Source: Candidatus Jordarchaeales archaeon (lineage in GTDB: Archaea > Asgardarchaeota > Jordiarchaeia > Jordiarchaeales > Freyrarchaeaceae). Taken from it: a DNA stretch of 32,000 nucleotides. Positions 4,229 to 7,835 of this stretch are shown one piece after another. The translations under genes and the position numbers were made by a program. The stretch spans positions 914,499 through 946,498 of the forward strand of contig JAWAHN010000001.1 in NCBI GenBank assembly GCA_038889235.1. Direction: 5' to 3'. Under the pieces are notes generated by a model that searched no databases, was not told the DNA's origin, and was given only the letters and a program-made list of their open reading frames with translations. Within the stretch, counting starts at the first letter, position 1; every line of letters starts with the position of its first letter.

Positions 4229-4858
4229 TTAGAAGGTTCTAGATTTTGCGATGTCTCCTTCTATGTCTAAAATTTCAGACCGATATTTTCTAGCGAGGGA
4301 GACCGCAAAGTCTTCAATCTCCTCTCTTCTAAAACCTAGGTCTAAGAGAGATGCTATCTTAATACCCGGAGGCCCACCTTTAGAAGATACATTAAAGGCA
4401 AAATGTATTTTTCCCGATGCGGGGGAAACTGTTGCTACACCTACATTAAGCTTACCATCATTGAAATAAAAGTCTGTACCCTTACGCTTCAAACGTAAAT
4501 TATGTGTTTCTTCAACAAGTTCTTTGAAGAGAAACGCAAGTATTCTCAAACGGTGGTACATGAGGCGCAGCGAGGGGGGCTGTTGGTCGAAGTGCTCAAT
4601 TATGAAGCTCACCGCTTCATCTGCACATATGACCGGGGTTCCTTTAGATCCTTCACGAAGGAAGTCCTTTACGTCCACGAGTTCTGAGGCTTCAACGTGA
4701 AGGGGGCCATTAAAGATAACTATTGAGTCACCTTGCAAGCCGAAGACTTTAAGAGACCATAGGGGCGCGATTTCTCTTCCGGTGTAGGGTAGCTTGTAAG
4801 TGAAGGGTAGGAGAGCTATCTTTAGGGGCTCTTTCTCGACTATCCTCAATTCTAACAT
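4229..4858 (-). CDS. DUF366-family protein (BPL/LplA-like fold)
   Basis: YTGREIAPLW, GDSIVIF, LVDVKD, FIIEHFD, RKGTDFY, KLNVGVAT and KIHFAFNV resemble DUF366. Confidence 0.75.
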   Translation of the reverse strand: MLELRIVEKEPLKIALLPFTYKLPYTGREIAPLWSLKVFGLQGDSIVIFNGPLHVEASELVDVKDFLREGSKGTPVICADEAVSFIIEHFDQQPPSLRLMYHRLRILAFLFKELVEETHNLRLKRKGTDFYFNDGKLNVGVATVSPASGKIHFAFNVSSKGGPPGIKIASLLDLGFRREEIEDFAVSLARKYRSEILDIEGDIAKSRTF

Positions 4859-4873
4859 GGGTAAACCCCACCA

Positions 4874-5727
4874 TTACAGTATGCCCAGCATTTTATGGAC
4901 TTGCAGTGATATCGAAACGTTTTCGCTTCCCAAGTAACGTGCAGCCAGCTCGGTAAATTTGCAAAGTTGTTGAAAGCTTGGAGGAAGGTAACCGTCCTTC
5001 GGAGTTACTGGTTGAATACACACTGGGCACTCTAATTTAGAAAGTTCACGTGAGTACCATTCAATGTTTTCCGTTTTGGTGTTTGAAGTAACTACTATTT
5101 TAGCGAAAACAGCCACCCCACTGTCTGAGAGAATTTTTATTGTTTTAAGCTCCAGTTCGACGAGCTCTTTCCAGTTTTTTGCAGCGTTAGCGGATTCATC
5201 TTTAATGTCGCAACAGCAGTAGTCTATTAGGCTGGCAATTCTAGCTGCAGCTTCAGGAATTGAGCCATTAGTTTCGAGATATAATTTGAAACCCGCATCC
5301 TTAATAGCTTCTGCGGTTGAACGCAGGAATTCTGGTTGGAATAACGGCTCCCCACCTGTCAGGGAAACGGCGTGGACATCTGGTGAGCGAAGATTACAAA
5401 CCCATTCGACTACGAAGCGTGAATCCACGGGGTTCTTGAAGTTGAAAACCTCACCCGTTGGTGTAACTACTCTCAAGTAGGTAGGGTTGGGCTGTACGGC
5501 GTGGGGGGTTTTGCGTTAGTTCATAAGTCGCACCACCCACACCCTTTACTTCCAAAGGCTCCGAGACCTATATTGCATCCTGAAAAACGGACAATTCGAC
5601 GGCATTAAAGCCTATATCGTCCGCCGCCCGTAATTTGAGCCCCTTACGCTTCCGCCTTCACCTTTACCCCTTCCCCGACTAGGAAGGATTGGTAGGAAGA
5701 GAATATCTCGTAGACCCACCCGCTCAT
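4874..5727 (-). CDS. queE: 7-carboxy-7-deazaguanine synthase QueE (radical SAM), 263 aa after removal of three BHB micro-introns. Exons: 5727-5689, 5662-5614, 5594-5527, 5509-4874
   Basis: The joined exons (39+49+68+636 = 792 nt) translate without stops: MSGWVYEIFSSYQ/GEGGSVRGSNYGRRTI/FVRFSGCNIGLGAFGSKGCGWCD/TPHAVQPNPTYLRVV...SLTGGEPLFQ...YLETNG...IQPV...QVHKMLGIL. The ORF track captured only exon 4, which lacks the Fe-S motif. Confidence 0.92.
5510..5526 (-). other. BHB intron 3 of queE (17 nt)
   Basis: GUGGGUGG-UGCG-AC|U-UAUGAACUAA-CGCA-AA|A-CCCCCCAC. Central helix UGCG/CGCA; the exon-exon stem pairs at 7 of 8 positions. Removal gives TGC GAC|ACC (WCD-T). Confidence 0.88.
5595..5613 (-). 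other. BHB intron 2 of queE (19 nt)
   Basis: CGAU-AU|A-GGC-UUUAAU-GCC-GUCG-AA|U. Central helix CGAU/GUCG (one G-U pair). Removal gives ATA T|TT GTC (I-F-V-R-F). Confidence 0.88.
5663..5688 (-). other. BHB intron 1 of queE (26 nt)
   Basis: UACC-AA|U-CCUUCC-UAGUCGG-GGAAGG-GGUA-AA|G. The 4-bp central helix UACC/GGUA has two 3-nt bulges and a 6-bp intron stem. Removal gives CAA|GGT (Q-GEG). Confidence 0.9.
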
Positions 5728-5829: not shown

Positions 5830-6282
5830 GTGCCAAGTGAGGTAAAAAGGGGGAAGTTGTTCGAATTGTCACTAATGAGACTTTTGATACCCAAAGTAGA
5901 AGTGAACGTTTGCAATGTGCGTTCAGTCGAACAATCGATAAGAAAGGCTGAAAGAGGTTTAGCAGGATACTTTGAAACGACAGCTGTGGTGTTAATGCAC
6001 AAGGAGGATATGAAAAAGATTGGTGTGAAGAGCGGAGACAAAGTTAAAGTTTCTTCGAATTACGGAGCGGTTATCGTCAAAGTGTATGAGACTGACGAAA
6101 CAAAGCCGGGATTAGTTTTGATGCCCAACGGCCCTTGGTTTAACACAATTAGCGGAGGAGACATACAGGTGACCTGGGGGGAACACTACTACTTAGTTAG
6201 GGCGACCGTGGAGGCGACGAGCAAGGAGGAAACGAAACTAGAGGACATAGAGAGAGATCTTTTCGGAGAGGGTGGAAAATGA
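5830..6282 (+). CDS. fwdD: Formylmethanofuran dehydrogenase subunit D
   Basis: Molybdopterin dinucleotide-binding-domain pattern: MHKEDMKKIGVKSGDKVKVSSNYG and MPNGPWFN. True start may be ATG 5875. Confidence 0.8.
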   Translation: MPSEVKRGKLFELSLMRLLIPKVEVNVCNVRSVEQSIRKAERGLAGYFETTAVVLMHKEDMKKIGVKSGDKVKVSSNYGAVIVKVYETDETKPGLVLMPNGPWFNTISGGDIQVTWGEHYYLVRATVEATSKEETKLEDIERDLFGEGGK

Positions 6283-7835
6283 CTGAGCTAATTTTAAAGA
6301 ATGGCATAGTGTTCGACCCAATTAATGGTGTTGAAGGAGAAAAAATGGATGTTATGGTCAAAAACGGCGTCATAGTGGAGCAAGTCAACGAAAGGGAGTG
6401 TAAAGTTTTAGATGTAAAGGGCATGACTGTGGTGCCAGGGGGTATAGATTGCAATGCGCATATAGCGTCTCAAATACTAAACATTGCGAGAATGACCGGA
6501 GTAAGAATGCCACTCCCGAGGGATCTTGGAGAAGATTATTTGAGGGCGGGTTATACATTCGTAGTTGAGGCGGGACTACCATTCTCAAAGGTTCTTCATG
6601 CACACATTGTATTGGAGAACGTGCATTCTCTGGACAAGGCATGCATCCTGCTTCTTGACTCAAACTGGTTTATGGCAGGATTCGCCGCGGAGGGAAACTA
6701 TGACGCGGCCGTGTCGGCTATAGCATGGCTACTAAGAGTAACTAGGACTTATGGGGTTGAGTTGGTCAACCCACTAAGCTTAGAGGTTTGGGCGTGGAAG
6801 AGAGAGTGGAAAGGTGCTATGGAAAAGGTAAAACACTTGGACATAAGCCCCTTGGAGTACACCAAGTTTGTTTCGTTAGCGCTTAAGAGACTTAACATTT
6901 CGAGTCCACTCTACCTGCACCCTGACGGCGCTGGACGCAAAGGGGGATGTGAAGACGCAATCGAAATATTAAACGGACTTAAAGAGTGTGGGAGAATACA
7001 TTTAACACATGCCCAGTTTTACACGCTTGGAAGTGACGGGGAACTACATGCCGAGAAACTTGCCAGGTACCTAGATTCCAATAGTGACCTAGATGCCGAT
7101 GTTGGATGTGCCACTGTTGGCGCTGGAACCTTTGCCGCCCATGATGCATACTTTACAAAAAACGTCTCCGAAAAGCTACACGTCTTGGAGCAAATAGAAG
7201 TTGAGGGCATCGCTACTTTAACGAAAACGAAGAGGGATCTGTGGGAAAAGTTTTGGGAAGCTGGTCTAATTCTTCTACTTGCTGTTAATAATCACTCAAA
7301 AATCCAGCTTTCAATGGATGTTCCTTTTTGCGGCTTACCACTAGACTATTCTTCAATAGCGGCATGGTTAGTAAGTAAAGCAGCAAGAAAATCCGTCAAT
7401 AGCACGGAGAGGATGCTTCAAATGGACGAGCTGAAACTTCAAGAATTGTTTACTATGACCAGAAGCGCGCCGGCATTGTCATTAGGGCTAGGCAAGAAGG
7501 GACGATTAACGGTGGGAGCTGATGCAGATATAGCAGTTTACGATTTTGATCCGGAGACCATGGATCCAAGCAGAGACTATGAGAGGTTTGCACGGGCTCT
7601 TTCAAGAGCCGCATACACCATAAAAGGAGGCGAAATCGTCGTTAAAAATGGAGAAATCGTGAATAAGGTTAAGGGGAGAACCTTCTGGGTTAACTGTAAA
7701 GTGGGAAAACCTCCAGAGGAAGTTCTCACTACTATGGAAAGGTACCTTTCATTCAATCCCAGACAGATGGAAGAAATAGGCAGGGTTTTGAGTGGAAGCT
7801 ATTGCAGCGTTGAGGGTGGTGTAAGCCATGTCTAA
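6279..7835 (+). CDS. fwdA: Formylmethanofuran dehydrogenase subunit A-like amidohydrolase (divergent active site)
   Basis: ILKNGIVFDPINGVEGEKMD, PGGID, GYT, VNP, HLTHAQF, GADADIAVYD and TIKGGEIVV motifs; fwd operon context. Confidence 0.8.
   Translation: MTELILKNGIVFDPINGVEGEKMDVMVKNGVIVEQVNERECKVLDVKGMTVVPGGIDCNAHIASQILNIARMTGVRMPLPRDLGEDYLRAGYTFVVEAGLPFSKVLHAHIVLENVHSLDKACILLLDSNWFMAGFAAEGNYDAAVSAIAWLLRVTRTYGVELVNPLSLEVWAWKREWKGAMEKVKHLDISPLEYTKFVSLALKRLNISSPLYLHPDGAGRKGGCEDAIEILNGLKECGRIHLTHAQFYTLGSDGELHAEKLARYLDSNSDLDADVGCATVGAGTFAAHDAYFTKNVSEKLHVLEQIEVEGIATLTKTKRDLWEKFWEAGLILLLAVNNHSKIQLSMDVPFCGLPLDYSSIAAWLVSKAARKSVNSTERMLQMDELKLQELFTMTRSAPALSLGLGKKGRLTVGADADIAVYDFDPETMDPSRDYERFARALSRAAYTIKGGEIVVKNGEIVNKVKGRTFWVNCKVGKPPEEVLTTMERYLSFNPRQMEEIGRVLSGSYCSVEGGVSHV

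Follow-up and report, generated by a model that had tools for sequence, protein, structure and literature searches.

The only QueE-like radical-SAM (S-adenosylmethionine) gene in the genome of an Asgard archaeon raises the question of how an enzyme can be made from a message whose reading frame breaks three times within its first 250 nucleotides (nt). The gene lies on the minus strand of a 32,000-nt stretch of contig JAWAHN010000001.1 from a Candidatus Jordarchaeales archaeon (the window), with its ATG at 5727 and its stop codon at 4874. Read directly, it holds an open reading frame (ORF) for the last 200 codons only (5476-4874), which matches the Pfam family Radical_SAM, and the unspliced message runs into a stop after 27 codons. 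Excision of 26, 19 and 17 nt yields a single clean ORF of 263 amino acids (aa) containing EIFSSYQGEG...IFVRFSGCN...CGWCDTP, in agreement with intronless orthologues. We conclude that the third of these inserts (5510-5526) is very probably a spliced intron of the relaxed bulge-helix-bulge (BHB) class, in the form known as hBH (helix-bulge-helix) or bulge-helix-loop (BHL), residing in the pre-mRNA of this gene.

The spliced product carries the radical-SAM signature C-x11-C-x2-C along with the N-terminal EIFSSYQGEG, a queD/PTPS gene is found two genes downstream, and homologues are named QueE in the sources. A scan with the NCBIfam QueE models, which covered the 200-aa tail encoded by exon 4 and three intronless orthologues, returned QueE equivalogs as the best or near-best matches. 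Given that the scores lie far below the QueE cut-offs, none of which was reached (e.g. 52 bits vs 260), we refer to the gene as QueE-like. The radical-SAM cysteines are encoded in exon 3, and the 200-aa tail alone therefore cannot work. In other Asgard lineages the intronless template runs uninterrupted through EIFSSFQGEG....GSCYGKRQIFIRFAGCN..(about 10 aa)..C.WCDSP. The host genome, a metagenome-assembled genome (MAG) in 8 contigs, belongs to the Jordarchaeia (a class also called Freyarchaeia) and contains a single copy of the gene; in each of the order's 11 species genomes, the gene is broken at these three positions.

Structure and conservation of the third insert

Intron 3 reads UUAUGAACUAACGCAAA (17 nt; 5526..5510, minus strand) and separates ...UGG UGC GAC (W C D; exon end at 5527) from ACC CCC CAC (T P H; exon start at 5509); the predicted spliced junction joins ...UGGUGCGAC to ACCCCCCAC. 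In a canonical BHB, four exon bases ending 2 nt before the 5' splice site pair with four intron bases ending 2 nt before the 3' site, and each bulge is cut after its second base (PMC2738675; PMC6379350). Applied to intron 3, this layout gives GAC|...|ACC, which is precisely the junction demanded by protein conservation (WCD-TP, in frame). The initial annotation, which was made from the letters of the window, had placed a 17-nt insert directly after the iron-sulfur motif WCD|T and had described a UGCG/CGCA central helix, an in-frame UGA and flanking exons pairing at seven of eight positions. All of this was confirmed on the minus strand, where the central helix H is perfectly paired (5532-5529 with 5515-5512) and the UGA occupies 5523-5521. 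The exon helix h proved to reach further: its core, GUGGGUGG (5540-5533) with CCCCCCAC (5508-5501), is paired at 7/8 positions and its extended form, GGUGUGGGUGG with CCCCCCACGCC, at 10/11. The lone mismatch, in which the U of Trp UGG faces the leading C of Pro CCN, is forced by the protein sequence. The stem inside the intron consists of a single U-A pair, with the 5' cut at the mouth of a 13-nt loop, and the motif is, judged by its pairing, of the relaxed hBH/BHL form.

At one fixed site and length, such a motif (four Watson-Crick pairs in H and at least seven of eight in h) has a chance frequency of 2.6e-5 in the host genome, and ~110 17-mers of this grade occur across the genome by chance. 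The motif alone proves nothing; its weight lies in the coincidence with the frame-restoring junction. A genome-wide scan for BHB motifs joining two open frames returned 4332 hits as compared to 4382 mirror-geometry decoys, without enrichment at any stringency, and such a scan therefore cannot pick out real introns or provide a genome-wide count. For the 43-nt region 5499-5541 the centroid fold is the proposed structure (z = -2.3; 3/200 shuffles equally stable), and a 49-nt version of the region gives z = -2.9.

The insert at site 3 is present in 15/15 distinct orthologues of the order (families Jordiarchaeaceae and Freyrarchaeaceae; 15-32 nt) and absent in 35/35 orthologues recovered outside it. 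The intron-bearers comprise all 11 species genomes, two JGI metagenome contigs obtained by a protein-based scan, which also yielded many intronless sequences, and two Jordiarchaeaceae contigs (Logan/NCBI) obtained by exact-protein look-ups. Insert lengths are 15, 16 and 17 nt in the Jordiarchaeaceae and 27, 29, 30, 31 and 32 nt in the Freyrarchaeaceae; as they differ among close relatives, the frame correction differs from species to species. Where intron-bearers have UGCG, intronless relatives mostly have TGT GAT. The opposite strand of helix H is CGCA, CGUA or CGCG, all of which pair, or CGCC with one mismatch, giving four pairs, or three and one mismatch, in the 13 tabulated relatives; the two extra contigs agree by eye. 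Loop sequence and length vary freely.

The two families differ in how the remainder of the structure is built. In the Jordiarchaeaceae, the intron stem is one pair (U-A or C-G) in 7/7 sequences, with two pairs in L007, and the exon helix joins the Cys-Gly-Trp codons to the Thr-Pro-His codons in canonical register. The Freyrarchaeaceae intron possesses its own 4-5 bp stem (h', UCUUA/UAAGA), in which one lineage carries a compensatory change (UCUU/AAGA to UCUC/GAGA), and the exon helix pairs C-AGG-UG with CA-CCU-G, one base out of register, over 6-7 bp that are extended by GGCU/AGCU. A canonical-register exon helix was rejected for this family, since it offers one pair vs 6-7 with the one-base slip; in the minimum-energy fold the 3' bulge is 2 nt instead of 3 nt. 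The view that intron 3 relies on an exon-exon stem alone thus holds for the Jordiarchaeaceae but not for the Freyrarchaeaceae. Likewise, all three introns end in AA in the host genome, as initially noted, but this is not a rule, as relatives also show AG, AC, AU or GC. Orthologues lacking the exon complementarity were not encountered among the 15 intron-bearers, 12 of which were folded or scored and three (L152, L153 and L012) judged by eye.

All three introns had also been said to sit at the most conserved QueE motifs. Next to the junctions, Q, G, F and D are indeed 100% conserved in 48 aligned sequences, and only 46/261 columns reach at least 95%. Conserved sites might keep their introns because any inexact loss would be selected against, or the invariant codons might provide a stable exon docking strand for the central helix; both explanations predict the same pattern and are equally good.

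Some relatives depart in detail. In L004 (L004:2120-2166; 15 nt, SKKRK) and L011 (L011:1399-1457; 27 nt, ILYNMLRRE), intron 3 is in frame and free of stops, and if left unspliced it would add 5 and 9 residues, respectively, beside the iron-sulfur motif without truncation. In a Jordiarchaeaceae contig from Logan SRR24425229 (L152:~855-900), Leu CUC replaces Pro after WCDT and a G.U pair is kept in the exon helix. At L153:~700-740, intron 1 is longer (~31 nt) and has an extended CCUCCUUCC/GGAAGGAAGG-type stem, which widens the variation in length and pairing at site 1.

Table 1. Positions of the QueE-like gene, its introns and the predicted splice structure of intron 3 within the window
Feature	Position	Strand	Description
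QueE-like radical-SAM gene	4874..5727	-	four exons, three introns; spliced ORF 263 aa
Intron 1, 26 nt	5663..5688	-	phase 0 between Q and GEG; UACC/GGUA helix; 6-bp stem covaries among genera
Intron 2, 19 nt	5595..5613	-	phase 1 in Phe codon; CGAU/GUCG helix, GGC/GCC stem; yields YGRRTIFVRF
Intron 3, 17 nt	5510..5526	-	phase 0 after Asp codon of WCD; U + 10-nt loop + CGCA + AA
Exon-exon helix h, 5' strand GGUGUGGGUGG	5533..5543	-	Gly-Cys-Gly-Trp codons; synonymous sites frozen
Helix H, 5' strand UGCG	5529..5532	-	exon: Cys UGC and G of Asp GAC; invariant in 15/15 intron-bearers
5' bulge AC, bases 1-2	5527..5528	-	predicted 5' cut 5527|5526 (AC|U), from the bulge base 2/3 rule
In-frame UGA in intron 3	5521..5523	-	intron reads UUA UGA in the frame of exon 3
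Helix H, 3' strand CGCA	5512..5515	-	in intron; perfect pairing with UGCG (4 Watson-Crick pairs)
3' bulge AA|A	5509..5511	-	predicted 3' cut 5510|5509; 3-nt bulge in centroid fold
Exon-exon helix h, 3' strand CCCCCCACGCC	5498..5508	-	Thr-Pro-His-Ala codons; duplex -13.8 kcal/mol

Codon use and base pairing across the junction

If the flanking exons form part of the splice structure, their codons should be constrained beyond the needs of the protein, and the initial annotation had predicted as much for a comparison of synonymous sites between intron-bearing and intronless orthologues. The comparison came out as predicted. In five species of the Jordiarchaeaceae, 6/7 degenerate codons around the junction are identical in all (Cys TGT, Gly GGG, Cys TGC, Asp GAC, Pro CCC and His CAC) vs 21/133 elsewhere (p = 2e-4), and in seven Freyrarchaeaceae the count is 5/6 vs 33/154 (p = 0.003). 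Nine intronless sequences with the motif CFWCDSP show 1/6 vs 13/76 (p = 0.69), with TGT/TGC, TCN and CCN varying freely. These are Fisher p-values, for which the other codons of the same alignment serve as background, and they are indicative only: the intron-bearers represent two or three independent lineages, the columns are not independent, and the values overstate the case, which counts against our reading.

Duplex energies, calculated for the 10 nt that precede helix H against the 10 nt that follow the junction, show the same division. Across 13 intron-bearers the mean is -12.6 kcal/mol (range -7.8 to -13.8), as compared to -2.5 kcal/mol in 35 intronless orthologues, only one of which falls below -5. 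Here, too, a reservation applies, as the intronless set is lower in G+C (0.27-0.46 vs 0.44-0.54), which in itself weakens duplexes; the three intronless sequences at G+C 0.43-0.46, however, reach just -1.6 to -1.8 kcal/mol.

These reservations lead to the alternative that survives best, namely that intron 3 is a spliced BHB intron and that its exon complementarity and frozen codons are a by-product of G+C-rich codon usage, of common ancestry, or of a protein-level or translational constraint at the iron-sulfur motif. The small number of intron-bearing lineages, among them four species of one genus with identical flanks, would fit such a scenario, as would the lower G+C of the intronless set and the intron stem of the Freyrarchaeaceae, which may render the exon helix non-essential in that family. 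However, elsewhere in the same genes, including the other parts of exon 3, just 16-21% of the codons for conserved amino acids are identical, and exon 3 displays ample synonymous change under conserved amino acids away from the introns. The intronless group varies freely at synonymous sites despite having the same CxWCDSP motif, and the two families achieve complementarity via different amino acids and a different register. Sites that do change remain pairable: the sole variable site in the Freyrarchaeaceae, Ser UCA/UCG, faces a U and pairs in either version, and the change from CCC to CUC lies opposite a G. We therefore regard a mere by-product as improbable, and the claim that splicing constrains the choice of exon codons around intron 3 is supported by the pattern of synonymous sites.

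The effect might extend to the protein itself. The residue between the second cluster Cys and the Trp is I, V, L, F, T, E or Y in the 35 intronless orthologues, and Gly (GGG) or Arg (AGG) in every intron-bearer. Both GGG and AGG complement the Pro codon across the junction, and the residue following this Pro co-changes (His CAC or Gly GGA), which extends the helix. That the splice structure has shaped the residues beside the radical-SAM iron-sulfur ligand, in addition to silent sites, is a tentative proposal whose odds we put at slightly less than even. If true, the need to splice an mRNA would dictate amino acids next to an iron-sulfur ligand, and Asgard coding exons would be integral parts of an intron-recognition structure.

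Alternatives to splicing and the surroundings of the gene

A different possibility is decay: the gene would be a pseudogene with several functionless insertions that break its frame, the 17 nt among them. The early stop in the unspliced message would be expected of such a relic, databases annotate just a tail of 200-251 aa, and the exon-4 tail scored far below every NCBIfam QueE cut-off, as did the three intronless orthologues. Yet, the gene is single-copy, and its three interruptions persist throughout an order whose synonymous divergence is saturated. In the spliced frames of exons 1-3, we obtained nonsynonymous and synonymous divergences of dN ~0.07 and dS ~1.3 (L001 vs L004, same genus; dN/dS ~0.05), and amino-acid identity across the two families is 66-70%. 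Such purifying selection implies translation of the small exons in reading frames that exist only once the inserts are taken out. Moreover, the inserts retain the BHB register at each of their varying lengths, and random decay would not leave invariant motifs to be restored by their excision. The pseudogene explanation is close to refuted, and we consider it highly unlikely.

Equally little speaks for retention of the insert in the mRNA and its bypass during translation by programmed frameshifting or ribosome hopping. The insert is short and has a stop two codons in, like some recoding sites, and the 15-nt and 27-nt versions of L004 and L011 could be translated through. However, the close relatives with 15, 16 and 17 nt would require shifts of 0, +1 and +2, the codons for take-off and landing do not match (GAC ... 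ACC), and two more inserts upstream would need the same handling. What is conserved is a BHB geometry and not a slippery site, and bypass thus appears to be a very distant prospect. An assembly or sequencing artefact, which a MAG in 8 contigs could suggest, is refuted by same-site inserts in independent assemblies from other projects (the single-contig genome G006, JGI contigs, Logan and NCBI records).

Several observations nevertheless speak against splicing of a relaxed BHB intron and its exact boundaries. Cleavage at a 13-nt loop with one closing pair by the host endonuclease is assumed by analogy with the Aeropyrum enzyme (see below). Fold z-scores are moderate among the intron-bearers, from -1.5 to -4.2, and helix H lacks two-sided covariation, its 5' strand being invariant. 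Protein conservation does not distinguish the D|T junction from a one-base shift giving D-S, and the BHB rule alone decides between the two. No full-length spliced protein was present among the 120 best matches to the C-terminal ORF in a collection of 5.8 billion proteins, in which the examined matches of 261-273 aa were intronless proteins of other lineages or out-of-frame read-through. A query with the 67-aa spliced N-terminus found no short fragment carrying it, and a degenerate pattern of the spliced junction was not found in JGI metagenome contigs. Absence from protein and metagenome collections is, however, not evidence against splicing.

Public records reflect the unusual structure of the gene. 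Because the introns interrupt the frame, annotation truncates or mis-frames it: the entries from Jordarchaeia (P0003, P0005, P0017 and others) are tails of 200-227 aa or products of 251-264 aa, which translate intron 3 in frame or start with out-of-frame read-through, and one of which is labelled Lokiarchaeia. The database "proteins" of 251-255 aa arise because the insert in L004 and L011 is in frame and has no stop. None of these records is the true 263-aa product.

The introns show a marked 5' bias, with all three (window 5510-5727) falling within the first 52 of 263 codons, and a search for hidden in-frame introns in exon 4 revealed no lineage-specific insertion in the remaining 211 codons. 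For intron 2, a junction giving RRRRIVRF was rejected, since the BHB register gives RRTIFVRF, like the KRQIFIRF of intronless relatives. The segment GLGAFGSKG between Cys residues was also discarded as an insert, as it is a regular part of the QueE-like family. ARAGORN and Rfam searches of the window gave no matches.

The gene forms an operon, queE-DUF366-queD, in which DUF366 (window 4229-4858, minus strand) and then queD/PTPS follow on the same strand. DUF366 is separated from each neighbour by 15-18 nt and occupies the same place in relatives; its product might take part in 7-deazaguanine synthesis as an uncharacterised partner. Divergent from queE (window 5830-7835, plus strand) are genes for a molybdopterin-binding-domain protein (150 aa) and an amidohydrolase-family protein (518 aa), with the start of the latter overlapping the stop of the former. 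The pair resembles FwdD/FwdA-like subunits, and this neighbour recurs in L152 and L153.

Splicing machinery and comparison with known systems

The host genome encodes two EndA paralogues, located at C1:1055690-1056280 on the plus strand and at C3:444282-444869 on the minus strand, together with RtcB (600 bits). In the catalytic EndA (alpha, 196 aa), inspection shows the Tyr/His/Lys triad, and a full-length alignment matches the protein to the catalytic subunit of Aeropyrum pernix (3P1Z_B, E = 4e-47), including the crenarchaeal loop with a Lys at the K44 position, a residue reported to be required for cutting relaxed and BHL substrates (PMC3241643). The second paralogue (195 aa) is without the His and gives a partial match to beta-subunit models, and the pair looks, from these alignments, like the (alpha-beta)2 type. 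Enzymes of the (alpha-beta)2 and epsilon2 types cut relaxed motifs efficiently (PMC5829648; PMC6379350). In the Freyr-/Jordi-lineage, 92-95% of tRNA genes bear introns, many of them at non-standard sites (PMC11291895; bioRxiv 10.64898/2026.10.13.758758). In addition, the host's own cbf5 gene, which lies outside the window (C1:835691-836673; L103/L104), is split by a 29-nt BHB intron with a CACU/GGUG helix, a GCCCC/GGGGC stem and the bulges AG|A and AA|A. It interrupts the catalytic Asp codon at G|AT, the position of the crenarchaeal cbf5 intron.

From these components we infer the following course of cutting and joining. As the transcript folds, the Gly-Cys-Gly-Trp codons of exon 3 would pair with the Thr-Pro-His-Ala codons of exon 4, and the Cys codon plus the first base of the Asp codon (UGCG) with CGCA near the 3' end of the intron. 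On the 3' side, three unpaired bases would remain as the bulge AA|A; on the 5' side, AC|U would lie at the mouth of a loop with just one closing pair. The putative heteromeric (alpha-beta)2 tRNA-splicing endonuclease could then cut each bulge between bases 2 and 3, and RtcB could ligate GAC to ACC, restoring the frame and the motif CGWCD-TP. Excision of all three introns in the same manner would yield the 263-aa enzyme. As coding sequence makes up half of the recognition structure, its codons, and probably also the residue between Cys and Trp, would be under selection at the RNA level.

The gene needs three excisions to yield any enzyme and belongs to the archaeal group closest to eukaryotes. 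Intron 3 is the clearest case in the gene of exons carrying the splice signal, with a measurable footprint on the choice of codons and perhaps of amino acids. Frozen synonymous sites that pair across a junction could offer a sequence-only route to recognising functional mRNA introns. For studies of the origin of introns, the gene provides a simple system in which the constraint that splicing places on exons can be tested with a 49-nt RNA and two proteins.

Our literature search found no description of BHB introns in Asgard protein genes, and endonuclease-spliced introns in archaeal coding sequences were found described for cbf5 only. In the unconventional splicing of HAC1/XBP1, as proposed for the queE introns, an endonuclease specific for stem-loops releases a small intron from an mRNA and a tRNA ligase seals the ends (RtcB-type ligation), with a change of frame; there, the endonuclease is IRE1 rather than EndA, and the process is eukaryotic and regulatory. 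A close counterpart is the crenarchaeal cbf5 pre-mRNA intron (Watanabe 2002; Yoshinari 2006; Yokobori 2009, PMC2738675), likewise a short, non-spliceosomal intron that interrupts a protein-coding frame at an invariant catalytic motif. Like intron 3, it varies in length among relatives and often has a relaxed cleavage motif in which intron pairs with exon; it is cut by a heteromeric EndA at bulge bases 2/3, as predicted for intron 3 (PMC2738675). In contrast to cbf5, the queE introns reside in an Asgard host and in a radical-SAM enzyme gene of the 7-deazaguanine pathway, three of them in one mRNA; at 15-17 nt, intron 3 is essentially stemless, and its outer helix consists purely of coding sequence, with 10/11 positions paired. 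For cbf5, complementary DNA demonstrated splicing, which we infer for queE.

Relaxed tRNA introns of the hBH/BHL type (Marck and Grosjean 2003; Hirata 2019, PMC6379350; PMC3241643) also combine a 4-bp helix with one clean 3-nt bulge and a second cut within a loop, and they need a broad-specificity EndA with the loop lysine, as encoded in the host genome. The queE helices differ in being built from mRNA codons instead of tRNA arms, and no mature tRNA body aids recognition. The crowded, non-canonical tRNA introns of Freyr-, Jordi- and Atabeyarchaeia (PMC11291895; bioRxiv 10.64898/2026.10.13.758758) come from the same lineage and presumably the same machinery, and they too occur several to a gene and at non-standard positions; the cases in the accessible text of these sources concern tRNA genes only, whereas the queE intron interrupts a protein frame. 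The mechanism is thus known from the crenarchaeal cbf5 mRNA intron and the relaxed hBH/BHL motif from tRNA introns, while the Asgard host, the gene, the presence of three introns per message and the clear footprint of an exon helix on codons are new.

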